Notes: a model not told the origin generated them from the letters alone. Shown: positions 1 to 15,460, counted from the first letter of the stretch. The stretch: DNA of 64,000 bases from Gemmatimonadota bacterium (GCA_965116475.1 OZ220691.1:2432001-2496000), one strand, 5' to 3'. A program made the numbers and translations.

Positions 1-421
1 GCTTGACGAGATTGGAGTTCTGGTTCAGCGGGATGCGCACGGAGCGGGTCTGCTCGGCCAGCGCCTGCAGCACCGTCTGCCGGATCCACCACACCGCGTA
101 GGAGATGAACTTCACGCCCTTGTCGGGATCGAACTTCTTGACGGCCTTGAGCAGGCCCTCGTTCCCGATGCAGACGAGTTCGGCCAGGTTGAGCCCCCGG
201 CCCTGGTACTTCTTCACATACGAGATCACGAAGCGCAGGTTCGCCGTGACGAGGCGCTCCGCCGCGTGGCGGTCGCCGGCACGCGCCTTCCGCGCGATCT
301 CCCGCTCGATCTGCGGGTTCTCGATGAGCGGATAGCGCTCGACGTCCTGCAGATACTGGTCGAAGGAGTCCAGCGCGTGCGTGTCGAAGAACATGCGTCG
401 GCCTGTAGCCGTCTTCGCCAT
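1..421 (-). CDS. RNA polymerase sigma70-family factor (short RpoD/SigA-like), truncated by the window edge
   Basis: Manual translation from ATG 421: MAKTATGRRMFFDTHALDSFDQYLQDVERYPL...ERLVTANLRFVISYVKKYQGRGLNLAELVCIGNEGLLKAVKKFDPDKGVKFISYAVWWIRQ, i.e. regions 1.2 and 2. Not in the ORF track. Confidence 0.92.
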   Translation of the reverse strand, partial: MAKTATGRRMFFDTHALDSFDQYLQDVERYPLIENPQIEREIARKARAGDRHAAERLVTANLRFVISYVKKYQGRGLNLAELVCIGNEGLLKAVKKFDPDKGVKFISYAVWWIRQTVLQALAEQTRSVRIPLNQNSNLVK

Positions 422-580
422 ATGAAATCCGAATCCTGACCCGGGTCGGTTGTTGAAAACCATCGCCGCGGGGTGGGCCAACCGGAACTCCGCCCCGCCA
501 CGGTTCGATCCGATCGCTTTTGATACAAACTTGAGATAATAGAGAAAATCGGAGTGAACCGCACGTTTTCCCGACTGCTT

Positions 581-727
581 CTACCGCGGACCCCCCGCTC
601 CGGCTCCCTCGCCGCCCCGGCCCGAAGCCGCGGCGCGTTCCCGGCGTCGCAGGCGGAGGAGATACCAGCCCAGCGCGACCCAGGTGATGCCGTACCCGGC
701 GCCGATAAACAGCCAGTGATCGTTCAT
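581..727 (-). CDS. ccmD: Heme exporter protein D-like small membrane protein
   Basis: 48 aa, MNDHWLFIGAGYGITWVALGWYLLRLRRR: one TM helix plus basic tail, directly downstream of ccmC. Confidence 0.7.
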   Translation of the reverse strand: MNDHWLFIGAGYGITWVALGWYLLRLRRRERAAASGRGGEGAGAGGPR

Positions 728-734
728 ACCCGGT

Positions 735-1394
735 TCACCCTTCCTCCGGTCCCGACAGTTCGAGTTCGAGTTCCGTTGCGGCCAGCCGGTAGCGCCGCAG
801 CCACAGGTACGCGAACGCGAGCGCATAGGCGACGAATCCGAGCAGCATCACGAGCCCGTACGCGCTCCACATCGACTGCGGCGACGACGGGGGCTGGTGC
901 AGGCTCCGCCACCAGAACACCGACAGGTACACGATCGGGACCTGGACGAACGCGATGAGGCCGATCACGGCCGCCCAGCGCGCCCGCCGGTCCGGATCCT
1001 CCGCCATCGACCGCACGACGAGGTATCCCGTGTAGATCGGTACGAGGAGCGCCGTGGTCGTGATTCGCGGGTCCCACGCCCACCAGATGCCCCACGTGGG
1101 CCGGCCCCACAGCGTGCCGAGGATGAGGGTGAGGACGGCGGCAAGCACCCCGAGTTCCGCCGCGGAGACCGCGAGCAGATCCCATTTCAGCCGGCGCTGC
1201 ACGAGGTAGAGGATGCTCATGAGGAAGACGACGAAGAAGGCGAGCATCATCACCCACGCGACCGGCACGTGGACGTAGAGGAGGCGCTGGACCTCGCCCT
1301 GCAGCGCGTCGGCGGGCAACACGGCGAGTCCGAGCACGCTGCCCACGGCGATGAGGGCGATCGCGAGCCACCCGAGCATGGTCAGTCTGTTCAT
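735..1394 (-). CDS. ccmC: Cytochrome c biogenesis heme exporter CcmC
   Basis: WWD motif WGRPTWGIWWAWDPR, YVHVP and SLHQP histidines. Confidence 0.93.
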   Translation of the reverse strand: MNRLTMLGWLAIALIAVGSVLGLAVLPADALQGEVQRLLYVHVPVAWVMMLAFFVVFLMSILYLVQRRLKWDLLAVSAAELGVLAAVLTLILGTLWGRPTWGIWWAWDPRITTTALLVPIYTGYLVVRSMAEDPDRRARWAAVIGLIAFVQVPIVYLSVFWWRSLHQPPSSPQSMWSAYGLVMLLGFVAYALAFAYLWLRRYRLAATELELELSGPEEG

Positions 1395-1404
1395 GAGACC
1401 CGCA

Positions 1405-2085
1405 TCACTCCTCGAGGACGACGGGGAAGATCCAGAGGCAGACCACGAACAATATCACGTCGTAGGACGCCAGTAACCTCAGCCACCCTGACGCCCGTCC
1501 GAGCGGGTCGCCGGCCAGGAACGCCTCGGTCGCGCCCACGCTCCCGAGGACGACGGGGACGAGGGCGGGGAAGAGGAGGAGCGGCAGCAGGAGTTCGCGC
1601 GCCCGGAGGTGGACGGTGAGGGCGGAGAAGAAGGTCCCGATGACGGAGAAGCCGAAGGTGCCGAGGGCGGCCACGAGGAGGAGCGGGCCGGCCTGCGCGG
1701 TGAAGTCGACTTGGTAGAGGATCGCGGCGGCGGGGAAGAGGACGACCTCGAGCGCGGCGAGCACCACGAGGTTGCCGGCCAGCTTGCCCAGGTAGATCGC
1801 GCGCACGTCGCCGGGATAGAGCCGCAGCAGGTGGGTCCCGCCCGCAAGCTCCTCGTTCTGGAACGTCCGGCCCAGGGAGAGGGTGCCGGTGAAGACGATC
1901 GCCACCCAGAGGAGGCCGCCGGCCAGCCGTCCGAGCAGGTCGTTGTCCACGCCGATGGCGAAGCTGAACATGAAGAGGACGAGGGCGGCGAAAGAGAGCA
2001 TCGCCGTGAACCCCTGCCGCGTGCGGGTCTCCGAAAGGATGTCCTTCCACAGGATGGCGGCGGCGCGCCGCGCGAGCGCGCTCAT
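1405..2085 (-). CDS. ccmB: Heme exporter permease CcmB
   Basis: ILWKDILSETR, YLGKL, RELLLPLLLFP motifs; ATG overlaps the ccmA stop. Confidence 0.92.
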   Translation of the reverse strand: MSALARRAAAILWKDILSETRTRQGFTAMLSFAALVLFMFSFAIGVDNDLLGRLAGGLLWVAIVFTGTLSLGRTFQNEELAGGTHLLRLYPGDVRAIYLGKLAGNLVVLAALEVVLFPAAAILYQVDFTAQAGPLLLVAALGTFGFSVIGTFFSALTVHLRARELLLPLLLFPALVPVVLGSVGATEAFLAGDPLGRASGWLRLLASYDVILFVVCLWIFPVVLEE

Positions 2086-2732
2086 GCGGTTCCCGCGGCC
2101 ACCCGGCCGCCCACCAGCCGCACGACCTCGTCGGCGTGTCGGGTCGCGTCCTCGACCCGGTGCGAGGCGATGACCACGGCGGCGCCGGCCTCGCGCCACC
2201 CGCGGACCGCCTCGTGCACGAGGCCCACGCCGTCCTCGTCCAGGCTCACGAAGGGCTCGTCGAGCAGCACCAGTTCCAGGGGGCGGAGCCGGAGCCGCGC
2301 CAGCTCGAGGCGCTGGCGCATCCCGGTCGACCACGCGCGCACCGGGACGTCCGCCGCCGCGCCGAGATCGACCGCGGCCAGTGCGCCCCGCAGGTCGTCG
2401 TCCGCGGCCGCCGTCCCGGACATGCGGGCCGCGAAGCGCAGGTTCTCGACCCCGGTCAACTCCTCGTAGGCGTGCCCGCCGGCCGTCATGAACGCGGCGC
2501 CCGTGCGGATCTCGTCCCCGCCGGCGGGAAGCGTGTGACCCAAGACCTGCAGCCGGCCCGCCGTCGGCCTGAGCAGCGTCGAGATGAGGCGGAGCAGCGT
2601 CGTCTTGCCCGTCCCGTTGGCGCCGAGCAGGGCGACGACCGCCCCGCGCGGCACGGCGAAGTCGACCCCCCGCAGCGCCCAGCGCCGTCCGAAGCGCCGG
2701 GTGACGCCCTCCGCGGCGACCGCGAGACTCAC
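2082..2732 (-). CDS. ccmA: Heme exporter ATP-binding protein CcmA
   Basis: Walker A GANGTGKT, signature WSTGMRQR, LLDEP; position in ccm operon. Confidence 0.9.
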   Translation of the reverse strand: MSLAVAAEGVTRRFGRRWALRGVDFAVPRGAVVALLGANGTGKTTLLRLISTLLRPTAGRLQVLGHTLPAGGDEIRTGAAFMTAGGHAYEELTGVENLRFAARMSGTAAADDDLRGALAAVDLGAAADVPVRAWSTGMRQRLELARLRLRPLELVLLDEPFVSLDEDGVGLVHEAVRGWREAGAAVVIASHRVEDATRHADEVVRLVGGRVAAGTA

Positions 2733-2785
2733 CGGCGCGCCCGCGCGATTGGCCAGCCGCCGAGGGCGCTCATACGTTCCGCCGC

Positions 2786-3991
2786 ATGGAACTCGACCGG
2801 ATCGCCCGTCTCGCCGGAGGCGGCGGGGGCAAGGTGCTGCTCTACGTGCTCGACGGGCTGGGCGGGCTGCCCCGCGAGCCCGGGGGGCCGACAGAACTCG
2901 AGGCCGCCCGCACCCCGCACCTCGACGAACTCGCCCGCGCCGGGACGTGCGGTCTCCACGACCCCGTTGCCCCGGGCATCACCCCGGGCAGCGGCCCCGG
3001 CCACCTGGCCCTGTTCGGCTACGACCCCCTCGTGTACGAGACCGGCCGCGGCGTGCTCGAAGCCCTCGGCATCGACTTCCCCCTCCGACCGGGCGACATC
3101 GCCGTGCGGGCCAACTTCTGCACCCTCGACGCCCACGGCCGGGTGGCCGACCGCCGCGCGGGCCGCATCCCGTGCGAGGAAGCCGCCCCCCTGGCCGCCC
3201 GGCTCAACGGCATCGAACTCGACGGCGCCCGCTGCACCGTGCGCCACGTGAAGGAACACCGCTTCGTCCTCGTCCTGCACCCCGACGCCCCCGCGGGCGA
3301 CGCCGTGAACGACACCGACCCCGGCCGGCCCGGCCTGCCGACCAGGGCCCCGGTGGCGCGGAACGCGGCAGCCGAGCCGACCGCGCGGCTCCTCGCGGCG
3401 TGGCTCGAAGCCGCCGCCGAACGGCTCGCCGACCGGACCCAGGCGAACATGGCGCTCCTGCGCGGCGTCTCCAGCCAGCCCGACTGGCCCCGCTTCGGCG
3501 ATGTATTCGGCATGCGGGCCACGGCGGCGGCCGCCTACCCCATGTACCGGGGCGTCGCGCGCCTCGTCGGCATGGACGCGCGCACGGTGCCCGCGGGCGC
3601 CCCCCCGCTCGTCGACGCCCTGAAGGCCCGGTTCGCCGAGCACGATTTCTTCTTCCTCCACTTCAAGCCTCCCGACAAGGCCGGAGAAGACGGCGACTTC
3701 GACCGCAAGGTAGCCGCCATCGAGGAAGCGGACGTCATCGTCCCGGATCTCGTCGATGCGGGCCCCGACGTCATCCTCGTGACCGGCGACCACTCGACCC
3801 CCTCCGTCATGAGCAGCCACAGCTGGCACCCCGTGCCCTTCCTCCTCCACGGCCCCCCGGCCCGCAACGACGCCGCCACCACGTTCGGCGAGACCGCCTG
3901 CCGCGCCGGCGCCCACGGCCGCGTTCGAGGCTGCGACCTCATGCGCCTCGCCACGGCCAGCGCCGGTCGCCTCACGAAGTTCGGAGCCTAG
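2786..3991 (+). CDS. apgM: 2,3-bisphosphoglycerate-independent phosphoglycerate mutase, ApgM type
   Basis: VLDGLGG, TPGSGPGHLALFGYDP, DRRAGRI, DKAGEDGD, TGDHSTP, HSWHPVP. Confidence 0.88.
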   Translation: MELDRIARLAGGGGGKVLLYVLDGLGGLPREPGGPTELEAARTPHLDELARAGTCGLHDPVAPGITPGSGPGHLALFGYDPLVYETGRGVLEALGIDFPLRPGDIAVRANFCTLDAHGRVADRRAGRIPCEEAAPLAARLNGIELDGARCTVRHVKEHRFVLVLHPDAPAGDAVNDTDPGRPGLPTRAPVARNAAAEPTARLLAAWLEAAAERLADRTQANMALLRGVSSQPDWPRFGDVFGMRATAAAAYPMYRGVARLVGMDARTVPAGAPPLVDALKARFAEHDFFFLHFKPPDKAGEDGDFDRKVAAIEEADVIVPDLVDAGPDVILVTGDHSTPSVMSSHSWHPVPFLLHGPPARNDAATTFGETACRAGAHGRVRGCDLMRLATASAGRLTKFGA

Positions 3992-4146
3992 CCGCCGCGC
4001 CCGAATCCGTACAGCCCACGCGGGTTTTCGGCGATTCCCACGCCCCCATCCGGCCCCACCGCCCATCGAGCCCGATGCAAGTTTGATGCTCGGGCGGGCA
4101 ATTAAGAGTAGGGGGGTGCATCGGAAACGCTCGGAGGGAGTACCGG

Positions 4147-5357
4147 ATGATCAACGTTCTTGCGGGCTCGGAAAACGACGCCGCGCTCATCGCGCAAGCC
4201 GTCGGCAACGCCGCACAGGTCGTGGCGGATGCGGCTCAGTTCACGAACGGCGATGGCCCCGTGGAGTGCCTGATTCTCGGTTGCCGCCATCCCATCCCGG
4301 CGGAGACGATCGAACTCCTGCGGGACATCGAACGGAAGAGGCTGTGGATGCCCCTCATCCTCGTCACGGATCGCGTGCCCGAGGCCGCGCGCCGGCTGAG
4401 CGACGATAAAGCGCCCCTTGCGCTTCAGTTCGGTTCGATTGCCGGAGCCGCAAGGGGCCCGTCGGGGACCGTCTTCGTGCTTGATGCCCAAGCGTCGGAA
4501 CTTCGGGCGTTCACGAGCGGGACGGGCGTGGCAAGTTTCGCGGTCGACACCTTCCAGGTGCTGGGTGGAGCGGGCCTGGGGCCTGGCGAATTCCAGTCGC
4601 CGAGGGCGTTGGCGCTCGGTGCGAACGGTACCGTGGCCGTGTTCGAGTCCATGGGCAGTGTGCACCAGTTCACGAACCGGGCAGGCGTGCTCGAGCACGA
4701 TGGCACCATTCAGCTCCGGATCGATGTCGACGATGCGTGTATTCTGGGTTCGGAACTCGTCGTCGCCGGCAGGGACCTCCAGCGGCCCGGGTCGATACAC
4801 GTATTCACCCTGGAGGGAGAGTGGCTGCGGTCTTTCGGCCACTTCTACGATACGGACAATCACCGCGTGTCGGCCGTGCTCCACCGTTCCAAGGTGGCTT
4901 GCCTGGAAGCATCGCGGCAGATTGTCGTGGCGCCGTGTTTCTGCCGGAACTCAGGAAGTACGATGCACACGGCCGATTGCTCTGGTGGTCCGCCTTGGAC
5001 GGCCTGTCGCCGGTGTACCTGGAGGAGATGCCCAATGGGGCCATTGCGACCGGCACGCCGGAGGACGGATACCACGGGACGGTGGCGGTGCAGGCCGACG
5101 AGAACCTCAACGCGGTGATACTCCAGGTGGCTTTCGTAACGCGGGAACGCCGGCGGAAGGGTGAGGCTCCCGATATTTTGACCTATGTGTTCAAACTGGA
5201 CGAGGGTCACGGTACGCTATTCGAGGGCGATGTCGATACCGTCCGGGATTTGTTTCCCGACGGTGCTCTGTTGTCGGCCCGACTTCCGTTCCCGACCCTG
5301 CGGATGGTTTCGTGGGCCGAGGGCGTGAGTCGGAGAGTCGCCGGGGGTGCGCCGTGA
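4147..5357 (+). pseudogene. Frameshifted chimeric gene: receiver-like N-terminus joined to an NHL/6-bladed beta-propeller
   Basis: ORF 4147-5118 reads as propeller (FVLDAQ, GAGLGPGEFQSP) until IVVAP; plausible protein continues in the frame of ORF 4737-5357 (FLPELRKYDAHGRLLW); frame switch near 4933-4940. Confidence 0.6.
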
Positions 5358-6817
5358 CGCCTGCTGCCTTCATGTCAACGAACCTTATGCGCTCGCGCGC
5401 TCACGGGGTAACGTGGCGCAGGATGTTCATTGCGTTCGCGCTGAGCGTCGCGTGGCCGTCGGGGGCGGCGGGTCAAGAACCGGGACGGGTGATGGGCGTG
5501 GTCCGCGCCGAGGACACCGGCGCGCCCGTGGAGGGGGCTGCGGTACGGCTGGCGGGAGCCGACGTCGTGGTGGCGGAAACCGTCACGGGCTTGGGCGGCG
5601 CCTTTGCCTTCGACGGGATCGCGCCGGGCGAGTATGTGCTCGGCGTGCGGCGCATCGGGTTCGCCGCGTACAGCGTGCCACTGGAGGTGGGGCCTGACGG
5701 GACGGCCCCGCTAGATGTGCGGCTGTCGCTGGACCCGGTTGAGATGGCGCCGCTGGAGGTGGACGTCGAGGGCCGACCGCTCCGCCTGGTCGAGACCGGT
5801 TTCTACGACCGGCTGGAGGAGGGCTGGGGCACGTACTTCGAGCCGGAGTGGATCAGGACCCGAAGCGTGGGAGTCGCACGACTGGCGCACTTCGTGTCGA
5901 ACCTGCAGATGCGGGCCCCCCTGTCCCGGTGTCCCACGGTGCAGGTCTGGTACGACCGGAGACTCATCGGGACAGTCGCTGGCTGGGGAACCAGCCAGCC
6001 GGCGTCGATCAATCCCGGCGGGACGCACCGGTCCGCCGGGGAGTCGCCCGCGCAACTGCTGGACGAACTGTCCGTGACGGATCTGGGCGCCGCTGAACTG
6101 TACCCGACTTCGTCTCCCATCCCGCTCTTTGCGCTCAACACTCACACGGTTCGCTGCGGGGCCATCATCCTGTGGTCCGACTGGATGGCGCAGATAGGGG
6201 GAGAGGTTCCGCAGATCGAAGTGAAGCTCTGCGAGCCGACTGGCGGTTCCGGCGCAGTGACGCTGGACGGGACCATCGAAGACCGGCTCACCGAGGTGCG
6301 GCTGCCGGCGGCCCGCATCCGGGCGTCGTTCGCGCCGGAGGGCGAGGTTGATCCGCCCGAACTCCGCGAGATCGAGGTGCGGTCCGACTCGACCGGCCGC
6401 TTCCGGCTCTGCGACCTCCCGTCGGGAACCGACGTCACGCTCGCGCCCTCGTACGGTCCCCATCCGGGCGAGGTCGCTGTGCTCCGTGCCGAATCCGGTG
6501 AAGCGGCCCGTCTGGTCGTCCCCGTCACGATGCCGGGATCGGTTGCCGGACGGGTCGTGAACGGGAACACGGGGCGGGGGTTCCCGGCCGTCCCCGTCAT
6601 GCTGGTCGGCACAGATGTGCGGGCCGTGACCGATGGTGCAGGCCGCTTCACGATGGAGGACCTGCCCCCGGGCTCGTACCAGGTGCGGGCCGACTGCGGG
6701 GGCTTCGAGTCGCCAACGCCGCGGGTTGCCGTCTCGGAGGCAGGACAGGCCCGGGTCCTCCTCGTCCTCGAGCCCGAAGACCGCTCCGGCCGCGATCTAC
6801 GCCGCTGCGACAACTGA
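5354..6817 (+). CDS. Secreted protein with carboxypeptidase-regulatory-like domains and a central TonB-plug-like domain, paralog A
   Basis: Signal peptide; GVVRAEDTGAPVEGAAV, VRSDSTGRFRLC, AVTDGAGRFTMEDLPPGSY repeats; C...AELYP...CGAIILW central domain; start uncertain (5354 or 5372). Confidence 0.75.
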   Translation: MTPAAFMSTNLMRSRAHGVTWRRMFIAFALSVAWPSGAAGQEPGRVMGVVRAEDTGAPVEGAAVRLAGADVVVAETVTGLGGAFAFDGIAPGEYVLGVRRIGFAAYSVPLEVGPDGTAPLDVRLSLDPVEMAPLEVDVEGRPLRLVETGFYDRLEEGWGTYFEPEWIRTRSVGVARLAHFVSNLQMRAPLSRCPTVQVWYDRRLIGTVAGWGTSQPASINPGGTHRSAGESPAQLLDELSVTDLGAAELYPTSSPIPLFALNTHTVRCGAIILWSDWMAQIGGEVPQIEVKLCEPTGGSGAVTLDGTIEDRLTEVRLPAARIRASFAPEGEVDPPELREIEVRSDSTGRFRLCDLPSGTDVTLAPSYGPHPGEVAVLRAESGEAARLVVPVTMPGSVAGRVVNGNTGRGFPAVPVMLVGTDVRAVTDGAGRFTMEDLPPGSYQVRADCGGFESPTPRVAVSEAGQARVLLVLEPEDRSGRDLRRCDN

Positions 6818-6823
6818 CACGCC

Positions 6824-6858
6824 GGTCGGGTGGTGCTGAGCGCCTCATCGGAGTGTTC
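6824..6858. repeat. Diverged copy of the SPW gene 3' end (10057-10091)
   Basis: ggtcgggtggtgctgagcgcctcatcggagtgttc vs ggtcaggcggtgctgggggcctcgtcggagtgttc, 30/35 identical by hand. Confidence 0.85.
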
Positions 6859-6904
6859 ACAGTTCAGAGCTTGAAGACTCTCCAGATGCCGTTACAGCCC
6901 GAGA

Positions 6905-7176
6905 GTGACCCTGACCTGCGGCGCGTTGCTGCTCCTGGCGGGCCTCCTCGCTCGTGGGGTGAGGGTGACCGCCCGGATTTGGGAGTTGCGGACGACCGGG
7001 AGGTGGTTGACGTCTCCGCGTCTCTGGAGGCGCTCATCGGGCCCAGCTTGCGAATCGGGAACGGAGTCCGGAACCCACTTCATTCCGGCTCGCGGCGGAT
7101 CTCCCGCCTTCTACACGAGCAGCGAGGTGTGGACTATGACGCCTTCGTACGGGCGCTCGGCGTGGAGCCACGGTAG
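6905..7176 (+). pseudogene. Remnant of a probable lipoprotein/propeller gene
   Basis: Hydrophobic signal-like LTCGALLLLAGLLA in one frame, then GEGDRPDLGVADDREVV...PSLRIG...VRALGVEPR* in another; too short for an intact gene. Confidence 0.35.
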
Positions 7177-7179
7177 GAG

Positions 7180-7213
7180 ACGTTCCCGCGGGAACGTGCG
7201 GGGTCAGGCGGTG
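7180..7213. repeat. Copy of the SPW gene stop and downstream region (10033-10068) with a perfect 18-bp palindrome
   Basis: acgttcccgcgggaacgt matches 10033-10050 at 17/18; ggggtcaggcggtg matches 10055-10068 at 14/14. Confidence 0.85.
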
Positions 7214-7317
7214 GTACTCGCACCGCCCGCCCGCAGGCGTCAGATTTCGATCTGGAACAGGAGAGGAAAGGGAAGTTCCGGGCTACCCGAGAGGGAGGTT
7301 GGACGATCGGAGTTCCG

Positions 7318-8811
7318 GTGGATTCGTCACGCGAGGCCGTCCTGATCGAGCGGACGGTCGGTGCCGTGGCGACGAGTCTCGCAAGGTCGTGCGCTCGCGG
7401 CGTGACGCGGCGCCTGGTGCTCGTGGCGCTCGCGCTGGGCGTCGCGTGGCCGATGGTGGCGGCGGGGCAGGAGCCGGGACGGGTGATGGGCGTGGTCCGC
7501 GCCGAGGACACCGGCGCGCCCGTCGAGGGGGCTGCGGTACGGCTGGCCGGAGGGGACGTCGTGGTGGCGGAAACCGTCACGGGCCTGAGCGGCGCCTTCT
7601 CCTTCGACGGAATCGCGCCGGGCGAGTATGTGCTCGGCGTGCGGCGCATCGGGTTCGCCGCCTACAGCGTGCCGCTGGAGGTGGGGCCCGACCGGCCGGG
7701 CCCGCTCGATGTGCGGCTGTTGCTGGACCCGGTCGAAGTGGCGCCGCTGGAGGTGGACGTCGAGGGTCGGCCGCTCCGCCTCGTCGAGACAGGCTTCTAC
7801 GACCGGCTGGAGGAAGGCTGGGGCACGTACTTCGAGCCCGAGTGGGTCCGAACCCGAAGCGTCGGCTTCACCCGGTTGTCGCACTTCGTGTCGAGCCTGC
7901 AGATGCGGGCCCCCCAGTCCCGCTGTCCCTCTGTACCGGTCTACTACGACCGGGAACTCATCGGCGAAGCCGATGGCTGGGGAACCAGTCGGCCGCGGTC
8001 GCTCAATCCGGCCGGCACGCAACGATCCGCCGTGGAGCCGCCCGCGCAATTCATGGACGAACTGTCCGTGGCGGATCTGGGTGCCGCCGAGGTCTATCCG
8101 ACTTCGTCTCCCATCCCGCTCTTCGCATTCAACGATACCACGATCAGCTGCGGGGCCATCATTCTGTGGTCCGACTGGATGGCGCAGATAGGGGGAGAGG
8201 TTCCGCAGATCGACGTGAAGCTCTGCGAGCCGACTGGCGGTTCCGGCGCAGTGACGCTGGACGGGACGGTCGAAGACCGGCTCACGGAGGTGCGGCTGCC
8301 GGCGGCCCGCATCCGGGCGTCGTTCGCGCCGGCCGACCAGGAGGGGCCGCGCGAACTCCCCGAGATCGAAGTGCGGTCCGACTCGACGGGCCGCTTCCGG
8401 CTCTGCGACCTTCCGTCGGGAACTGGCGTCACACTGGCGCCCTCCTACGGCCCCCATCCGGGCGAGGTCGCCACGCTCCGCGCCGAACCCGGCGCCGCGG
8501 CGCGTCTGATCGTCCCCGTCACCATGCCGGGCTCGGTCGTCGGGCGGGTCGTCAACGGGAACACGGGGCGGGGGTTCCCGGTCGTACCGATCGTTCTGAT
8601 CGGCACTGATGTCCGGGCCGTGACCGATGGTGCCGGCCGCTTCACGATGGAGGATCTGCCCCCGGGCTCGTACCAGGTGCGGGCCGACTGCGGGGGCTTC
8701 GAGTCGCCAACGCCGCGGGTCGTCGTCTCGGAGGCAGGGCAGGCCCGCGTCCTCCTCGTCCTCGAGCCCGAAGACCGCTCCGGCCGCGACCTGCGCCGCT
8801 GCGACAACTGA
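7318..8811 (+). CDS. Secreted carboxypeptidase-regulatory-like/plug-like protein, paralog B
   Basis: Collinear with 5354-6817, with long identical stretches and an identical C-terminus ...GRDLRRCDN. Confidence 0.75.
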   Translation: MDSSREAVLIERTVGAVATSLARSCARGVTRRLVLVALALGVAWPMVAAGQEPGRVMGVVRAEDTGAPVEGAAVRLAGGDVVVAETVTGLSGAFSFDGIAPGEYVLGVRRIGFAAYSVPLEVGPDRPGPLDVRLLLDPVEVAPLEVDVEGRPLRLVETGFYDRLEEGWGTYFEPEWVRTRSVGFTRLSHFVSSLQMRAPQSRCPSVPVYYDRELIGEADGWGTSRPRSLNPAGTQRSAVEPPAQFMDELSVADLGAAEVYPTSSPIPLFAFNDTTISCGAIILWSDWMAQIGGEVPQIDVKLCEPTGGSGAVTLDGTVEDRLTEVRLPAARIRASFAPADQEGPRELPEIEVRSDSTGRFRLCDLPSGTGVTLAPSYGPHPGEVATLRAEPGAAARLIVPVTMPGSVVGRVVNGNTGRGFPVVPIVLIGTDVRAVTDGAGRFTMEDLPPGSYQVRADCGGFESPTPRVVVSEAGQARVLLVLEPEDRSGRDLRRCDN

Positions 8812-8813
8812 CC

Positions 8814-8879
8814 CTCCGCCCATCCCGGTGCCCGTACCCACGGTGGTGACGCCGAAGACGAGGTCGTTGAACAGGGCCT
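8814..8879. repeat. Diverged copy of SPW coding sequence (10100-10165)
   Basis: 57/66 identical and ungapped; minus strand reads ALFNDLVFGVTTVGTGTGMGG vs AFFNDLMFGVITVGTGAAMGG. Confidence 0.9.
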
Positions 8880-10021
8880 ATCGCCGTCACCGGCTGGCGT
8901 CGCCCAGGCTTCGAACCGCGCTCGCGGCAGTCACGCTGTTCGCCGCCTGCGGCGAGCAGACCGAGTCCGGGTCGCAGCCGCTCCAGCTCGATCCGTATGC
9001 TTCCGTGATCGCGCCGCCGAGCCTGATCGACGAGATCGTGCTGCTGGAGGGTGAAAGGGCCTGCGTCATCGATACCTACTGGTACCGTGTCGTCTGCACC
9101 GATCCGGGCGGTGATTCCTTCAGGTTCGGCAGGGAAGGCGAAGGGCCGGGCGAGTTCACGGACCCGACCGAGGTCCTCCGCGGGCCAGCGGGAATGATCG
9201 GTGTAGTGGACCCGCGATCGAACCGCCTGTCGATGTTCTTGCGGTCCGGTGAGTTTGTGGCTTCCACTCCGGGGCTGCAGGGGATCCCGGGCATCCTGAC
9301 CAGCAGCGGCCCGTCCGCCACGGGCGGGACGATGGCCACAAGCTTTCGGAAGTTCGGTCCGGACAGGCGTTCAGGCTCTTCCACCGCGCAAGCGGAAATC
9401 GATACCGCCACGGGCCGGGTCGTATGGGAGCGGACGTTCCCGGACGAGGCCGATGTGGTGAACTGCTCGACCCCCAGACCCGGATCACCCCGCCGTCAGA
9501 TGGGAACGGGATACGATGACGGGGACGGCGGCTTGGTCTTCGTGACGTGCTACGGGGAGTTCCTGGTTTGGTATGCCGACCGTGACGCGGACGAACCGGG
9601 CGCCATCGTGCGGACCACGTACGTCGAGCGATACCCGACCGACGAAGACGTCGCTTCCGAGCTTCGGTTCCTGAACTCGATTCCATCGGGCGGCTTCCGC
9701 CCGGACGTCGATGAGGAAGACATCCGGGCGCGACCCAAGGCCTGGTACGGCGCGCGCGTGGTGGACGACGAGTGTCGATTCTGGGCGGTGTCGCATTGGA
9801 ATTCGAGCGACGTAACCCCGTCGCTCAGCTACATCGACATGTTCCGGCTCACCGACACAGGCCCCGGGTACGCGCTGACGCTGCAAGTGGCGGACAAGGT
9901 GGTGGGGATGGATGTGCTCGGAAACGCGCTCGCCGTGCTCGTGGAGCGCGAAACCGGTGGCGTAGTCCGCGAGCGCCGCGTGGACTGGTACGACGTGACC
10001 GACGTGGCCCCTCAACGCTGA
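8843..10021 (+). CDS. Beta-propeller lipoprotein (NHL/6-bladed-like)
   Basis: Lipobox ALAAVTLFAAC; FGREGEGPGEFTDP motif; start uncertain (GTG 8843/8846 or TTG 8867). Confidence 0.65.
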   Translation: MVTPKTRSLNRAYRRHRLASPRLRTALAAVTLFAACGEQTESGSQPLQLDPYASVIAPPSLIDEIVLLEGERACVIDTYWYRVVCTDPGGDSFRFGREGEGPGEFTDPTEVLRGPAGMIGVVDPRSNRLSMFLRSGEFVASTPGLQGIPGILTSSGPSATGGTMATSFRKFGPDRRSGSSTAQAEIDTATGRVVWERTFPDEADVVNCSTPRPGSPRRQMGTGYDDGDGGLVFVTCYGEFLVWYADRDADEPGAIVRTTYVERYPTDEDVASELRFLNSIPSGGFRPDVDEEDIRARPKAWYGARVVDDECRFWAVSHWNSSDVTPSLSYIDMFRLTDTGPGYALTLQVADKVVGMDVLGNALAVLVERETGGVVRERRVDWYDVTDVAPQR

Positions 10022-10058
10022 CAAGGCGGGCCACGTTCCCGCGGAAACGTCCAGGGGG

Positions 10059-10400
10059 TCAGGCGGTGCTGGGGGCCTCGTCGGAGTGTTCGATTCCGGC
10101 TCCGCCCATCGCGGCGCCGGTGCCCACGGTGATGACGCCGAACATGAGGTCGTTGAAGAAGGCCTGCGCGTTGGCGAGATACCCGTGGATGAAGGGCGAC
10201 AGCATGCTGTAGGCGCCGAGGGCGATGAGTCCCCAGCCGCTGATCCGGTTGATGCCGAGGTTGAAGGTGATGGTGACGACGAGGATGGAACCGCCGAGCA
10301 CCACGCTGTGCCACCACAGGAAACCGAACGGGTATCCCCAGATGAACGGGGCGCCCAGGAACCAGAGTCCCAGCGCGAGACCGACCCAGCGTGACGCCAT
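10059..10400 (-). CDS. SPW-repeat-like small membrane protein
   Basis: 113 aa, four TM helices, two repeats (GLWFLGAPFIWGY and GAYSMLSPFIHGY...NDL). Confidence 0.7.
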   Translation of the reverse strand: MASRWVGLALGLWFLGAPFIWGYPFGFLWWHSVVLGGSILVVTITFNLGINRISGWGLIALGAYSMLSPFIHGYLANAQAFFNDLMFGVITVGTGAAMGGAGIEHSDEAPSTA

Positions 10401-10479
10401 CGAACCTCTCTCGGAAGAAACCGGATGAACCGTCGAACCGGCGCCTATGATGCGCCCCGGCAGGGGCAAAGGCAACGTC

Positions 10480-12780
10480 CTACAGGCGGGCGCGGCGGAG
10501 GCGGTTCGCGTTCGTGACGACGGAGATCGAACTCAGCGCCATGGCGGCCTCCGCGAGGACGGGGTGGAGAAGGCCGAGGAAGGCGACGGGGATCGCGACG
10601 ACGTTGTAGACGTAGGCCCAGAAGAGGTTTTCGCGGATCTTGCGGAAGGTGGCGCGGGAGAGCTTCGTCGCGCGGACCACGGAGCGCAGATCTCCCTGCA
10701 CGAGGGTGATGTCGGCGGCTTCGATCGCGATGTCGGTGCCGGTCCCCACGGCGATGCCGACGTCGGCCGCCTTGAGGGCGGGGGCGTCGTTGATCCCGTC
10801 GCCGACGAAGGCCACGGTGTGGCCGTCGGCGCGGAGTTGCCGCACGGCCTCGACCTTGTCGGCGGGGAGCAGCCCGGCCCGGAAGTCGTCGATGCCGAGG
10901 TGCTCGGCGACGGCGGCCGCCACGGCTTCATGATCGCCGGTGAGCATCACGGTCCGGAAGCCGCGGCGGCTCAGCTCCAGGAGGGTCTCCCGGGCGTCTT
11001 CCTTCACCGGGTCGGCGATCGCGATCGCGCCGAGCAGCCGCCCGCCGGCGGACACCCAGGCGACCGTGCGCGCGTGGTCGCCGAACCGCCGCTCGACCCG
11101 GGCGATGTCCTCCTCCGGGATGCCCTCCTCGCGCAGCAGCCGCGCGCTGCCCACGGAGACCCGCTGGCCATCGACCTCGCCGACGATGCCCATCCCGACG
11201 CGGGCTTCCACGCCGCCCGCCCGGGAGAAGGGGATGCCGCGCCCGCGCGCCTCCTCGACGACGGCGCGGGCGAGCGGATGCTCCGAGGCGTCCTCCACCG
11301 CGGCTGCGAGTGCGAGCACGCGCCCCTCGGCGGCTTCCTCCGTCGCGAAGATCTCGACCACGCGGGGGGCGCCGCGGGTCAGGGTGCCGGTCTTGTCGAA
11401 GACGAGCGTGTCCGCCCGGTCCAGCGTCTGCACGGCGGCCCCGTCCCGGATGAGGACGCCGCGGGTCGCCCCGAGGCCGGTCCCGACCATGAGCGCGGTG
11501 GGCGTGGCGAGCCCGAGCGCGCAGGGGCAGGCGATGACGAGCACCGCGACCGCGGCGTAGAGCGCGAGGGACAGGCGGCCCAGTTCCGGGTTCACCCACG
11601 GGATGAACCCCGACGCCCAGCGCGCGGCCTCCGTGAAGACGCCGGGCACGACGAACCAGCCCGCGAAGGCCGCCAGCGCGACGACGAGGATGACGGGCAC
11701 GAAGATGGCGGTCACCCGGTCCGCGAACTCCTGGATCGGGACCTTGCTCGCCTGCGCCTCCTCCACGAGGCGAATGACGTTGGACAGGAAGGTGTCCTCG
11801 CCCACACCCGTCGCCCGCACCCGAAGCGCGCCGGAGTGATTGACGGTCGAACCGAGGACGGAGGACCCCGGTTCCTTCTCGACCGGAATCGACTCGCCCG
11901 TCGCGAGCGACTCATCGACCGCGCTCCGCCCCTCAAGGACGACGCCGTCCGTGGGGATCTTCTCGCCCGGGCGGATGATCATCACATCGCCCACCGCGAC
12001 GTCGCGGGTCGGGATCTCGAGTTCGGTGCCCTCCCGCTCCACGCGCGCCGTGGGCGCTTCGAGCGAAAGCAGCGCCTGGATCGCCGACGAGGAGCGGCCG
12101 CGCGCCTTCGCCTCCACGTAGCGGCCCGTGAGGTGGATGGCGGCGATCATCGCGCCTACCGGCGCGAAGTTCATGATCATCGGGGCGAACCCGAGGACGT
12201 GCAGGACGGCCCACGCCCCCGTGAGCACGGAGACGCCGGCCCCGAGCGCGATGAGAACGTCCATGTTCGGCGTGCGGCCCCGCGCCGAACGCCACGCGCT
12301 GCGCAGCGTCGCCCCCCCCGGCCCGATGAGGACGGCGGCGCCGAGCACGGTGACGCCGAGGTCGAAGACGAGCGGCGACGGCCAGCGCACCCCGGCGAAC
12401 ATCTCCGGCAGCATCCACACCATGGCCGGGACGGTGAGCGCCCACGCGGTCCACATCGTTTTCCACGCCTCGCGCGAGCGGGCTTCCGCCTCCGCAAGGC
12501 GCGAGCGCTCCGCCTCTCCCCGGTCCACGTCGGCGATGGGCTCGATCTCGTAGCCGGCCCCCTCGACGGCCGCGGCGAGTTCCTCGAAACCCACGTCCCG
12601 GGTGAGCGTCAGCGTCGCGGACTCGGCGGGGAGGCTCACCGCAGCCTCCACGCCGTCGACCGCGTTGAGGCTCCGCTCCACGGCGCCGACGCAGGCCGAA
12701 CAGTGCATGCCGGCGATCCGATAGGTCTTCCTTGCCGCGGTCGGCGTGGGGGCCGAGGCGTCCATGGTCATCCTTGTCAT
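10480..12780 (-). CDS. copA: Copper-translocating P1B-type ATPase
   Basis: GMHCSAC metal-binding domain, TGES, CPC, DKTGT, GDGINDAP, YN and MALSS motifs. Confidence 0.93.
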   Translation of the reverse strand: MTRMTMDASAPTPTAARKTYRIAGMHCSACVGAVERSLNAVDGVEAAVSLPAESATLTLTRDVGFEELAAAVEGAGYEIEPIADVDRGEAERSRLAEAEARSREAWKTMWTAWALTVPAMVWMLPEMFAGVRWPSPLVFDLGVTVLGAAVLIGPGGATLRSAWRSARGRTPNMDVLIALGAGVSVLTGAWAVLHVLGFAPMIMNFAPVGAMIAAIHLTGRYVEAKARGRSSSAIQALLSLEAPTARVEREGTELEIPTRDVAVGDVMIIRPGEKIPTDGVVLEGRSAVDESLATGESIPVEKEPGSSVLGSTVNHSGALRVRATGVGEDTFLSNVIRLVEEAQASKVPIQEFADRVTAIFVPVILVVALAAFAGWFVVPGVFTEAARWASGFIPWVNPELGRLSLALYAAVAVLVIACPCALGLATPTALMVGTGLGATRGVLIRDGAAVQTLDRADTLVFDKTGTLTRGAPRVVEIFATEEAAEGRVLALAAAVEDASEHPLARAVVEEARGRGIPFSRAGGVEARVGMGIVGEVDGQRVSVGSARLLREEGIPEEDIARVERRFGDHARTVAWVSAGGRLLGAIAIADPVKEDARETLLELSRRGFRTVMLTGDHEAVAAAVAEHLGIDDFRAGLLPADKVEAVRQLRADGHTVAFVGDGINDAPALKAADVGIAVGTGTDIAIEAADITLVQGDLRSVVRATKLSRATFRKIRENLFWAYVYNVVAIPVAFLGLLHPVLAEAAMALSSISVVTNANRLRRARL

Positions 12781-12790
12781 CCTTCCCGTA

Positions 12791-13126
12791 TTACCTGTCG
12801 GCGAAGCGCGTGAAGAGATCCGCGATCTCCGCGCGCACCCGCGCGGCGTCGTCACCGCCTTCCTCGATGGCATGGGTGGCGCAGCGCTCGAGGTGGTTCA
12901 GCAGGAGTTCCTTCTCGGCCGCGCGCAGCGCGGAGTGAACGGCGGCGAACTGCTGCAGGATGTCCGGGCAGTACCGTTCATCCTCCACCATGCGGGCGAT
13001 GCCCCCGACCTGTCCCCGGATACGGGCCAGCCGACGGCCGAGGTCCTGTTTCGTCCCATCCGCGATCCCCATCGCATGCGGCCCCGCGTCGCTCACCGCC
13101 ATTCCCTCCGCGCTTACGTCCATCAT
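12791..13126 (-). CDS. csoR: Copper-sensing repressor, CsoR family
   Basis: RLARIRGQVGGIARMVEDERYCPDILQQ...NHLERC (Cys-His-Cys); upstream of copA; start uncertain. Confidence 0.9.
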   Translation of the reverse strand: MMDVSAEGMAVSDAGPHAMGIADGTKQDLGRRLARIRGQVGGIARMVEDERYCPDILQQFAAVHSALRAAEKELLLNHLERCATHAIEEGGDDAARVRAEIADLFTRFADR

Positions 13127-13172
13127 CGTCCGACCGTGGGTCGGGTAACCGTGGGTCGTTCCTGCGTAAAAT

Positions 13173-13194
13173 ATACTATACAGGGGTATGGTAT
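13173..13194. promoter_or_regulatory. CsoR operator
   Basis: ATACTATAC-AGGG-GTATGGTAT: AT-rich inverted repeat around a G tract, the known CsoR operator layout, ~47 bp upstream of csoR. Confidence 0.8.
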
Positions 13195-13288
13195 TCTCCG
13201 CAAGCCGTGAACCCCGATCCGAACCGCGGCGCGAAATCGGGACGTGAGCGGTGGCGGCGTTTTGCCGGGGGCTGCTAAACTCAGGGCC

Positions 13289-13957
13289 ATGTTCAGAAGA
13301 CTGAGGCAGATGGTCGACGAGGCGCTCGACCGGATGGAGGCGAAGCAGCCCGGCGCGTCCGAGGACGACATCGACCGCGTCATCCGCGCCATGCGCCAGG
13401 AACTCGTCGATACGCGGGCGCGGATCTCCGAACTCGAGGACCTGCTCGAGTCGCAGGTGCGCCAGGCCGACAAGGAAAGGGAGGCGGCCGGGGTCGCCGA
13501 ACGGCGCGCGGCGAAGGCGGCCGAGATCGGCGACGCCGAGACGGTCGAGGTCGCGAACCGGTTCGCGGCGCGGCACCGCCAGCGGCTCGAGGTGCTCGTC
13601 CTCAAGGCCGAGGGGACGCAGGCCGAACTTCAGCAGCAGAAGGCCGAGGCCGCGCAGGGCGCCGAACAACTGAAGAGCGCCATGGCCCGGCGGGATTCGC
13701 TCAGCGTGCAGCAGCGGCGCGCACAGGCGATCCAGCACTCGTCCGACCGGATCGACTCCGTCGATGCGTTCGACCGCATGGCCGAGAAGATGGAGGGTAG
13801 GAGCGACCTCGACGACGCCCGACGCCAGGTGGAGGAGGCGCTCGACCCGATGGCCGGCGCGCCGGAGCGGGACTTCGTGGCCGAGCGGGAACTGCGGGAG
13901 GCGCGGGCGGACGCGATGCTCGAGGAGTTGAAGCGTCGCATGTCGAAAGGGGAGTAG
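13289..13957 (+). CDS. pspA: PspA/IM30 family protein
   Basis: ~222 aa coiled coil, AERRAAKAAEIGDAE..A, AFDRMAEK, LEELKRRM C-terminus. Confidence 0.75.
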   Translation: MFRRLRQMVDEALDRMEAKQPGASEDDIDRVIRAMRQELVDTRARISELEDLLESQVRQADKEREAAGVAERRAAKAAEIGDAETVEVANRFAARHRQRLEVLVLKAEGTQAELQQQKAEAAQGAEQLKSAMARRDSLSVQQRRAQAIQHSSDRIDSVDAFDRMAEKMEGRSDLDDARRQVEEALDPMAGAPERDFVAERELREARADAMLEELKRRMSKGE

Positions 13958-13960
13958 CGG

Positions 13961-15460
13961 ATGGACCTGCTGACCATCGCCGTCTTCGGCTACCCGCTCG
14001 TCCTCATCGGGATCGGCGTGTGGCGCTCCAGGCAGATCAAGAGCCACGCGGACTTCATGGTGGCCGGCCGGAACGTGCCGGTGGCCCTCCTCGTGGGGAC
14101 GCTCATCTGCACCTGGATCGGGTCGGGGTCGCTCTTCGGCGGGGCCGGGCTGGCCTACCGCACGGGGGTCGCGGAGCTGTGGTTCTCCTTCGGCGCCTGG
14201 GTCGGCCTCCTCGTGGCCTTCTACCTTGCCCCCCGCGTGCGCTCGATCGCCAAGTACACCGTCCCGGACCTCCTCGAACAGCGCTACAACGCGGCCGCGC
14301 GCGTCCTCGGCACGGTCGCGATCATCCTCGCCTACGTCACGATCGCCGCCTACCAGTTCCGGGGCGGCGGCTGGATCCTGAGCATCGTCACCGACGGCGC
14401 CATCTCGCCCACCACCGGGATGATCATCACCTGCGTCACGATCGTGGCGTTCACGGCGCTCGCCGGGATGGTGTCCATCGTCTCCGTGGATCTCCTGAAC
14501 GGGATCATCATCACCCTCGGCATCGTCATCGGCCTCCCCTATCTCGTCCTCTCCAACGGCGGCGTGGGCGAGATCGCGGCCGCGCTGCCCGAGGGTCACC
14601 TCACCGTACTCGGCGGGCACAACGTGCTCTGGGTCATCGGCGTCGCGATGCCCACCTTCCTGCTCATCCTGGGCGAGAGCGGGATGTACCAGAAGTTCTT
14701 CTCCGCCAAGGACGCGGGGTCGGCGAAGAAGGCCGTGGTCGGCATGTTCCTCGGGGTCGTCTTCATCGAGACGACGCTGGCGCTGATCGCAATCGTGGGC
14801 CGGGCCGTCTTCCCGGAACTCGCGGACCCGGAGCAGGTGTCGCTGGTCGGCCGCGCCGCGTCGGAGACGATCATCCTTCACATCGCCGCCAACGGCCTGC
14901 CGATCGTCGGGGGCGCGATTCTCCTCGCCGCGGCGGTCGCCATCGTGCTCTCCACCGGCAACACGTTTCTGCTCGTGCCCTCGACGAACGTGAGCCGGGA
15001 CCTCTACGAGCGCTTCGTGGATCCGGACGCGAGCGAGGGGCGGAAGCTGGCGCTGCAGCGCCTCTGCGTCGTTCTGTTCGGCGGGCTGGGGCTCGTGTTG
15101 CTGACGCAGTTCGACACGGTGCTCGAGATGGCGCTCTACGCGTACTCGCTCGTCGGGGCGAGCCTCACGCCGGCGCTCCTCGCGGCCTTCCTCTGGCGCC
15201 GCGTGACGCCGCAGGGAGGGATGGCGTGCATCGCGGGCGGACTCGGGAGCATCGTGGGGATCGCGCTCCTGTCGAAGTTCGGCGTGAACTTCACCGCCAC
15301 GATCGGGGGGACCGCGTTCGACTTCGCCTCGAGCGACTACATCGTGATCCCCGGCGTCCTCATCTCGCTCGGACTCCTGATCGTCGTGAGCCTCCTCACG
15401 CCGCCCTCACCGGAAGAGAAGTGGCGGCCCTTCTTCCAGGAGAGCCCCGAGAAGCTCTGA
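13961..15460 (+). CDS. Sodium:solute symporter (SSS family)
   Basis: DFMVAGR, TWIGSGSLFGGAGLAY, YTVPDLLEQRY; many TM helices. Confidence 0.9.
   Translation: MDLLTIAVFGYPLVLIGIGVWRSRQIKSHADFMVAGRNVPVALLVGTLICTWIGSGSLFGGAGLAYRTGVAELWFSFGAWVGLLVAFYLAPRVRSIAKYTVPDLLEQRYNAAARVLGTVAIILAYVTIAAYQFRGGGWILSIVTDGAISPTTGMIITCVTIVAFTALAGMVSIVSVDLLNGIIITLGIVIGLPYLVLSNGGVGEIAAALPEGHLTVLGGHNVLWVIGVAMPTFLLILGESGMYQKFFSAKDAGSAKKAVVGMFLGVVFIETTLALIAIVGRAVFPELADPEQVSLVGRAASETIILHIAANGLPIVGGAILLAAAVAIVLSTGNTFLLVPSTNVSRDLYERFVDPDASEGRKLALQRLCVVLFGGLGLVLLTQFDTVLEMALYAYSLVGASLTPALLAAFLWRRVTPQGGMACIAGGLGSIVGIALLSKFGVNFTATIGGTAFDFASSDYIVIPGVLISLGLLIVVSLLTPPSPEEKWRPFFQESPEKL

Follow-up and report, generated by a model that had tools for sequence, protein, structure and literature searches.

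Displaced 3' ends of an SPW-repeat gene at joints between variable cargo genes in a sponge-associated Gemmatimonadota genome

The DNA analysed here, referred to as the window, is a stretch of 64,000 nt from a Gemmatimonadota bacterium (GCA_965116475.1, OZ220691.1:2432001-2496000), whose whole genome of 3.62 Mb is designated G000 in the genome set used below. The window carries, in order, ccmCBA (minus strand), apgM (plus strand), approximately 6 kb of cargo genes on the plus strand, the gene for a small membrane protein with an SPW repeat (minus strand), and a copper-type P-type ATPase gene (minus strand). An original prediction, made from the sequence alone, had described the interval between apgM and the SPW gene as a candidate gene-capture hotspot, in which cargo genes end at displaced copies of the 3' end of SPW. 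The stop codons at 6817, 7176, 8811 and 10021, the plus-strand orientation of the cargo, and the coordinates and identities of three displaced pieces, here named fragments 1 to 3, were confirmed (Table 1).

Table 1. Features of the apgM-SPW interval and its flanks, with positions counted from the first nucleotide of the window
Feature	Positions	Strand	Assignment	Evidence or remark
apgM	2786..3991	+	Cofactor-independent phosphoglycerate mutase; conserved left anchor	Pfam PhosphMutase (2.3e-45), Metalloenzyme
Motif ATCCGTACAGCCC	4005..4017	+	Conserved left edge of the variable slot	13 nt past the apgM stop
Decayed cargo gene	4147..5357	+	Frameshifted, beta-propeller-like	Overlapping frames 4147-5118 and 4737-5357
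parA	5312..6817	+	Secreted-type protein with two CarboxypepD_reg domains	Pfam 1.2e-33
Fragment 1	6824..6858		SPW relic covering its last 35 nt (10057-10091), stop codon mutated	30/35 identical
orf107	6853..7176	+	107 codons; collapsed remnant of lipo2, a gene for a lipoprotein of ~368 aa	blastp, tblastn
apgM relic	6859..6900		Putative relic of the last 18 nt of apgM (source 3974-3991), its stop and the CCGTACAGCCC motif	Forms joint 1 (J1) with fragment 1
PAL	7180..7197		18-nt perfect palindrome ACGTTCCCGCGGGAACGT	Member of a genome-wide repeat
Fragment 2 proper	7202..7213		First 12 nt of the SPW end (10057-10068)	
parB	7318..8811	+	Paralog of parA	88.6% nucleotide identity
Fragment 3	8814..8879		Relic of SPW 10100-10165	57/66 identical
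lipo	8846..10021 (start approximate)	+	Lipoprotein-type gene; newest module	LFAAC lipobox by eye; no Pfam family
PAL copy	10033..10050		Palindrome between lipo and SPW	1 mismatch
SPW	10059..10475	-	SPW-repeat membrane protein; conserved right anchor	Pfam SPW (2.1e-11)
copA	10480..12873	-	Copper-type P-type ATPase	Pfam E1-E2_ATPase, HMA, Hydrolase; kept in relatives

Displaced SPW ends and cargo genes in the window

Fragment 3 was found to be the sole significant genome-wide match of positions 10022-10480 (blastn-short, E 1.4e-9 over 3.62 Mb), and it matches a profile of native SPW 3' ends with an E-value of 1.6e-14. Fragment 1 taken alone is weak (E 1.3 genome-wide by blastn-short; profile E 0.032 over 27 oriented sequences), but in G002, G011, G023 and G041 the native par-SPW junction can be aligned, uninterrupted, with parA and fragment 1 taken together. 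Given this alignment and the presence of the relic in five genomes, fragment 1 is considered real, and it appears to be the leftover of an earlier par-SPW adjacency.

Fragment 2 had been predicted as a match of 7180-7213 to 10033-10068, and these segments are 32/36 identical with one gap. However, 18 of its 34 nt constitute a palindrome (PAL) that is repeated throughout the genome. The objection anticipated in the original prediction, that the fragments might belong to a genome-wide repeat, hence applies to half of fragment 2 only, and leaves fragments 1 and 3 and the SPW end of fragment 2 unaffected. The 12 nt that follow the palindrome, GGTCAGGCGGTG, occur four times in the genome, both strands included, and stand alongside only 2 of 85 palindrome copies, both within the island, so the SPW-end part of fragment 2 is specific to this locus. 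The succession of orf107, palindrome and fragment 2 matches the native lipo2-PAL-SPW junction of G007, G013, G010, G050 and G051, and fragment 2 would be a relic of such an adjacency. Every relic extends a gene-to-SPW adjacency that is found native in another genome.

That the matches arise from chance, from a genome-wide repeat or from an assembly artefact is hardly credible. Such an explanation would draw on the palindromic part of fragment 2 and on the genome-wide E-value of fragment 1, but it is largely refuted by the E-value of fragment 3, by the locus-specific 12-mer beside the palindrome, by the occurrence of relics at the same places in independent assemblies, and by sequencing-run contigs of two studies that cover the stretch. 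Contigs of run X18, possibly the sample behind the window assembly, span 6808-8419 and 8656-10500 with zero differences and bridge all three joints, and run X19, from another study, gave depth in 30 of 30 bins. Misassembly, which the original prediction had named as a possible refutation, is therefore unlikely.

As had been predicted, no integrase or transposase domain was detected by Pfam in the six island open reading frames (ORFs) scanned (3992-10058). No tRNA or tmRNA gene that could serve as an integration target was found in positions 1-14000 of the window or in the G012 and G022 loci, and no Rfam family was found in 2500-11000.

Signal peptides and lipoboxes of the cargo products were assigned by eye. 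The decayed gene is related to a protein of 450-463 aa that is intact in G023 and G020, with DUF5128 matches in the intact copies. In a tree of par sequences, parA falls in a group with the first of the G002 par copies (support 0.98) and parB is without a clear partner, all par copies being mutually 82-93% identical. As judged by blastp against lipo2 of G012 and G007, orf107 retains only N- and C-terminal pieces, corresponding to residues 36-66 and 354-368 of the 368-aa product. The lipo product is 33-36% identical over 55-205 aa to G010 lipo2, to a 400-aa lipoprotein of G022 (E2first, described below), to the product of a gene in G023 resembling that at 4147, and to G013_7538; the cargo lipoproteins are distant paralogs of each other. 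Two candidate starts of lipo, GTG at 8846 and TTG at 8867, as read from the sequence, are located inside fragment 3, and relics may persist by providing start codons for the gene that follows.

The apgM-SPW interval across the genus

Thirty-six genomes of Candidatus Palauibacter, a genus of sponge-associated Gemmatimonadota, were searched for the two flanking genes, and gap sizes were derived from the match coordinates. SPW and apgM were each present in 35 genomes, while neither was found in G014 with the queries used. They lie on separate contigs in G002, G016, G012 and G008, and on one contig in the other 31 genomes, where the gap measures 21-147 nt in 13 genomes, 486 nt in one (G048), 1.3-12.2 kb in 16 and 72 kb in one (G019). 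Where apgM is at most 77% identical to that of the window, the gap is short in 12 of 13 genomes, with G019 as the exception; among closer genomes (apgM >77%), only G006 (76 nt) and G048 have a short gap.

The cargo consists of par alone in G011 and G044, lipo2 alone in G007, lipo and lipo2 in G010 and G051, five other genes together with lipo and lipo2 in G013, and includes a 5.7-kb segment encoding a two-component system (histidine kinase and response regulator) in G022 and G003. The apgM 3' end was located in 20 loci; in 15 of them, apgM is followed by the CCGTACAGCCC motif at no more than 2 mismatches, and the genes downstream of the motif vary among the loci that carry it. As the gap is empty in some genomes and variably filled in others, the idea of a gene-gain hotspot with variable cargo is borne out in the relatives. 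In G048, the 486 nt start at the CCGTACAGC motif with a 390-nt internal par fragment fused directly to it; the terminal ~45 nt of lipo2 come next, followed by the palindrome. This interval is a collapsed island and illustrates fast deletional trimming of the locus. In a metagenome scan with TCGGAGTGTYCACGNRG, an unspecific pattern, at least 120 stretches were returned, and none of the 80 loci fetched matched the island by blastn.

Joints, SPW alleles and order of events

In G002, the array extends over two contigs and includes apgM, the decayed gene, parA, the 35-nt relic, an apgM relic, the lipo2 remnant, the palindrome, fragment 2 and parB. There, parB abuts a complete native SPW end, without palindrome, lipo or fragment 3. 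Hence, the lipo module is the latest addition in the lineage of the window. The same comparison speaks against the suggestion that the copies at 7180 and 8814 are a single copy split by parB, as G002 has the 7180-type piece and parB followed by a complete SPW end; the two pieces also leave out positions 10069-10099, which would lie between them. Fragment 2 followed by par is an arrangement common to G000, G002, G003, G022, G023 and G041.

Strain differences in SPW are concentrated in its last ~130 nt (window 10072-10190), which fall into two allele classes, against 0-2 differences per 60 nt in the rest of the gene. The resident SPW end is near-identical to those of G012, G006 and G041 (0-3 differences per 60 nt) and differs from those of G002, G003, G022 and G016 at 3-8 positions per 60 nt. 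Fragment 3 is 92% identical to the allele of G002, G023 and G016 and 86% identical to the resident allele, and it agrees with G002 at 5 of 6 diagnostic sites read by eye from the sequences. As in a displacement array, it is the newest module that adjoins the anchor, and the older allele is retained in the displaced piece. Since this is the SPW allele of the nearest relative, it points to import, and the simplest reading would be that lipo, the palindrome and the new SPW 3' end were imported together from another strain.

Using the SPW-end profile and one pattern match, seven 35-nt relics were identified in five genomes, namely the window genome, G002, G003 (two), G022 (two) and G043. The end point is identical in all seven, with GTGT(T/C)C to its left and AC to its right. 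In G002, G022 and G003, the ~50 nt to the right of the relic read ACG.AGTTCGGAG ... TAG ... ATGCCGTACAGCCC, and a profile of 15 native apgM ends matches this flank with E-values of 0.016, 0.042 and 0.23, respectively (318 kb). These matches carry weight because they sit at or adjoining the joint, and both conserved blocks are natively spaced; the G022 alignment begins 12 nt inside the relic. While the apgM relic is thus detected directly in three relatives, 6859-6900 of the window is assigned to it by homology to the G002 copy, as window 4737-7059 aligns unbroken to G002 and 6859-6900 lies within a continuous alignment of 86% identity. Joint 1 is therefore SPW (+35) fused to apgM (-18), a head-to-tail joint of the whole interval. 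Only TC is common to SPW (GTGTTC-GA) and apgM (CCTC-AC) as microhomology at this joint, the hyphen marking the breakpoint.

A second right context of the relic, seen in G022, G003 and G043, is ACGAAG followed by the 400-aa lipoprotein gene E2first. This gene was not found natively beside apgM and occurs only behind par and the relic in these three genomes. Its only available start (N-terminus MFTKSGPIGLVCTVTFGVAGC; G022 L017 6475-7677; also G003 and G043) is a GTG inside the SPW relic.

Other joints lie at other positions of the SPW end. The breakpoint of fragment 2 is at +12 in the window and at +14 in G041 and G023, and in G020 par is followed by ~24 nt of SPW end (+24 breakpoint) and then lipo. 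Fragment 3 spans SPW +43 to +109 and is joined on its right side to lipo DNA that, in G022, begins ~30 nt past the apgM stop. At least three distinct joints are therefore present in the window genome, in keeping with the at least two rounds of insertion proposed earlier. The proposal that elements integrated into the SPW 3' end found little support, as the right flank of the 35-nt relic is a relic of the apgM 3' end and not element DNA, and the breakpoints differ (+12/14, +24, +35 and +109).

In run X1, a 938-nt contig appears to contain the par end and a fragment-3-like segment to 8858, 10 nt, apgM 3962-3994 and lipo 8920-9638. Further contigs, from X1, X2 and X19, appear to carry a direct joint of apgM with lipo, of the end of lipo with the region of orf107, or of 7197 with 10057. 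An apgM-like stretch at ~7273-7296 was discarded, because the sequences on the right of fragment 2, of fragment 3 and of joint 1 in the window aligned locally to the apgM end no better than shuffled sequences.

A head-to-tail joint is exactly the product of a tandem duplication, and the array could have arisen in situ only, by one or more duplications of the apgM-SPW interval through unequal or illegitimate sister-strand exchange, followed by divergence and differential loss of paralogs and with no import. The paralogs parA and parB at a spacing of 1994 nt, the distant paralogy of the cargo lipoproteins, and frequent deletional decay, exemplified by orf107, the frameshifted gene at 4147-5357 and the collapsed G048 interval, are consistent with this. 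This origin is nevertheless considered unlikely, as the allele class of fragment 3 is not that of the resident SPW end, unrelated genes occupy the slots on either side of a joint, and the left neighbour of one and the same joint varies across genomes. Furthermore, lipo is missing from G002 though the other modules match, and the divergence between parA and parB (88.6% identity) equals that to the copies of other genomes.

The palindrome ACGTTCCCGCGGGAACGT is present in 45 exact copies, and in 85 copies at up to 2 mismatches, in the 3.62-Mb genome. It is common across the genus and adjoins SPW at the 10033-type position in 14 genomes. Copies outside coding-like frames are enriched (42 of 85, versus 68 of 400 random sites), as judged by a crude test. 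Between par and SPW, the palindrome is present in G023, G011 and G044 and absent in G002 and G041, and thus comes and goes. The genome yielded no match to Y1_Tnp, the Y1 transposase expected of a repetitive extragenic palindrome (REP) and REP-associated tyrosine transposase (RAYT) system, and a role as terminator was rejected, as the folds of three contexts were no better than those of shuffles (z -0.5 to -1.6). At least five genomic places carry pairs of the palindrome ~0.96-1.07 kb apart (e.g. G000:C1:548249-549260); given the conserved flanks common to these places, the pairs appear to be parts of one multi-copy element. No Pfam family was found for the ORFs of one ~1-kb stretch between two copies.

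In G012, an element is located inside the palindrome between lipo2 and SPW (L033 ~2440-2452, L013 ~10290-11650). On the left contig the palindrome ends at ACGTTCCCGCGG and is followed by AT-rich sequence, and the SPW-side contig resumes with CCGCGGGAACGT, placing CCGCGG, the centre of the palindrome, on both sides. About 80 nt from the palindrome half-site lies the start of a gene for a tyrosine integrase of the P4 type (Phage_integrase, Arm-DNA-bind_3, Phage_int_M), and an IS1595 transposase, a PadR regulator and two large Ig/PKD-domain proteins, maybe of the same element, are encoded upstream on the SPW-side contig. The palindrome may be the target of this integrase in G012, where the island is split over two contigs. 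Two integrases that are 60% and 44% identical to that of G012 are encoded by G000, outside the island.

A recombinase encoded elsewhere, acting at SPW +35 (GGAGTGTTC) and possibly at the palindrome, might likewise insert or exchange cassettes, as in an integron or in the accretion of genomic islands. It would account for the same end base in 7 of 7 relics with several left and right contexts, and the G012 integrase beside the split palindrome and its G000 relatives would fit with it. However, the island itself is without a recombinase, none was found among the scanned ORFs of at least 90 aa of the 5.7-kb G022 module, and the remaining joints lie at other SPW positions. In addition, the right side of joint 1 corresponds to the 3' end of the opposite flank and not to the end of an element, the G012 element lies in the palindrome and not in SPW, and no repeated att-like core surrounds the modules. 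A site-specific process is thus regarded as quite improbable.

Proposed mechanism and relation to known systems

The explanation that we favour, and hold to be probable if only just, is additive, homology-anchored illegitimate recombination, followed by exchange and decay of modules. The convergent apgM/SPW gap would act as a hotspot at which DNA of a related strain pairs with either the conserved SPW/copA side or the apgM side; copA, as a long homology past SPW, could anchor such recombination. The other end of the incoming DNA would be joined illegitimately, with little or no microhomology, within the terminal ~110 nt of the SPW gene already in place. As a result, a module consisting of cargo and a fresh SPW 3' end would be added beside SPW, and the old SPW end would be displaced inward as a relic. 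As the incoming piece would often start in or just after apgM, head-to-tail fusions of SPW and apgM relics would be formed at some joints. The relics would later provide short patches of homology for module swap, for duplication, as in parA/parB, and for deletion.

We infer that illegitimate recombination followed DNA uptake, rather than being part of an in-situ duplication. Among the mechanisms listed in the original prediction, homology-anchored capture and duplication fit better, whereas a trans-acting recombinase fits worse. Homologues of ComEC and DprA are present in the genome, and were also detected in 10 of 14 control genomes; because both are widespread, this is weak evidence, compatible with DNA uptake.

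Several points weigh against recombination of this kind. The GTGTTC-AC breakpoint is found with three left contexts (par, lipo and the diverged copy of G002) and two right contexts (apgM relic and lipo2; ACGAAG and the lipoprotein gene). If it stems from a single illegitimate event, later crossovers inside ~10-35 nt of relic are needed; the recurrent +35 breakpoint would be more simply explained by a site-specific process, and this is the main difficulty. The E-values of the apgM relics are modest, the three copies are homologous and derive from one joint, and the window copy at 6859-6900 is more decayed and scores at chance level against the apgM end. Neither alignment nor profile could demonstrate an apgM relic on the right-hand side of fragment 2 or fragment 3 of the window, and the X1 contig that appears to carry one, with an apgM piece of 33 nt, is known via a joint table alone. 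The lack of 10057-10099 in fragment 3 calls for an additional deletion. Later gene conversion of SPW, unrelated to the gain of lipo, could also have produced the allele mismatch. The relatives are mostly metagenome-assembled genomes, and natural transformation is, to our knowledge, unproven in this uncultured genus.

A bolder possibility, which we think rather doubtful, is that the fused relic (the last 35 nt of SPW, the apgM end and CCGTACAGCCC) is a portable cassette boundary that is reused via a recombinase encoded elsewhere or via very short homology. The locus would then be an integron-like array without its own integrase, shuffling surface lipoprotein genes among sponge-symbiont strains, with relics giving the start codons of the next cassette.

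Homology-anchored illegitimate recombination, the favoured explanation, has parallels in systems with sequential displacement. Displacement of this kind was reportedly described for Rhs C-termini by Jackson and colleagues in 2009. The effector-immunity arrays of the Vibrio cholerae type VI secretion system (T6SS) have been proposed to evolve by homology-facilitated illegitimate recombination (Kirchberger et al. 2017, PMC5361080). As far as that account describes them, such arrays share with the island the placing of new modules beside a conserved anchor, the pushing away of older material, orphaned 3' pieces of the anchor and the absence of an integrase (PMC5361080). Here, orphaned pieces between modules include fragments 1-3 and the relics in G002, G003, G020, G022 and G043. 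Unlike the T6SS arrays as outlined there, the anchor is a small SPW membrane-protein gene and not a toxin gene, the cargo lies past the end of that gene and comprises lipoproteins and CarboxypepD_reg proteins rather than immunity genes, and at least one joint carries a relic of the opposite flank.

Genomic islands and integrative and conjugative elements that integrate in the 3' end of a gene form tandem accretions with att repeats. The island resembles these in having a displaced gene 3' end near its former neighbour, in several rounds of addition and in leaving the gene intact. In contrast to them, it has no integrase of its own and no constant att core or boundary, only the +35 type being recurrent, and flank DNA lies to the right of the relic. 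It also differs from an integron cassette array, as there is no integrase, the palindrome stands behind only 2 of 5 cargo units, and no Rfam family was found. Additive flexible genomic islands and integration hotspots are known between core genes, and the same core-gene interval being empty in some genomes and holding different cargo in others is shared with them; the seams here, however, can be read to the nucleotide and run flank to flank rather than at tRNA or integrase sites.

Clusters of tandem lipoprotein paralogs have been reported to evolve by recombination in units extending across the ends of genes (Tsuru and Kobayashi 2008, PMC2568036). In the part of that work considered here, the clusters are likewise one-strand arrays of fast-evolving lipoprotein paralogs, with units covering a 3' end, the intergenic region and the next 5' end. 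The boundaries in the island are instead relics of two housekeeping flanks, and unrelated genes enter as well. Taken together, the locus is probably best regarded as a new variant of sequential-displacement or additive-island behaviour, and not as unprecedented.

The interval offers a base-by-base view of how a bacterium can gain genes at a single location without machinery supplied by a mobile element, and the order of events can be read because the seams retain pieces of both neighbouring genes. If the repeated joint were truly a reused recombination site, cassettes would have a landing pad of the locus's own making; on present evidence, the locus clearly exemplifies a process that has already been put forward for toxin-immunity arrays. 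Given that the cargo consists of fast-evolving secreted proteins and lipoproteins, the hotspot may drive strain-level variation of the cell surface.

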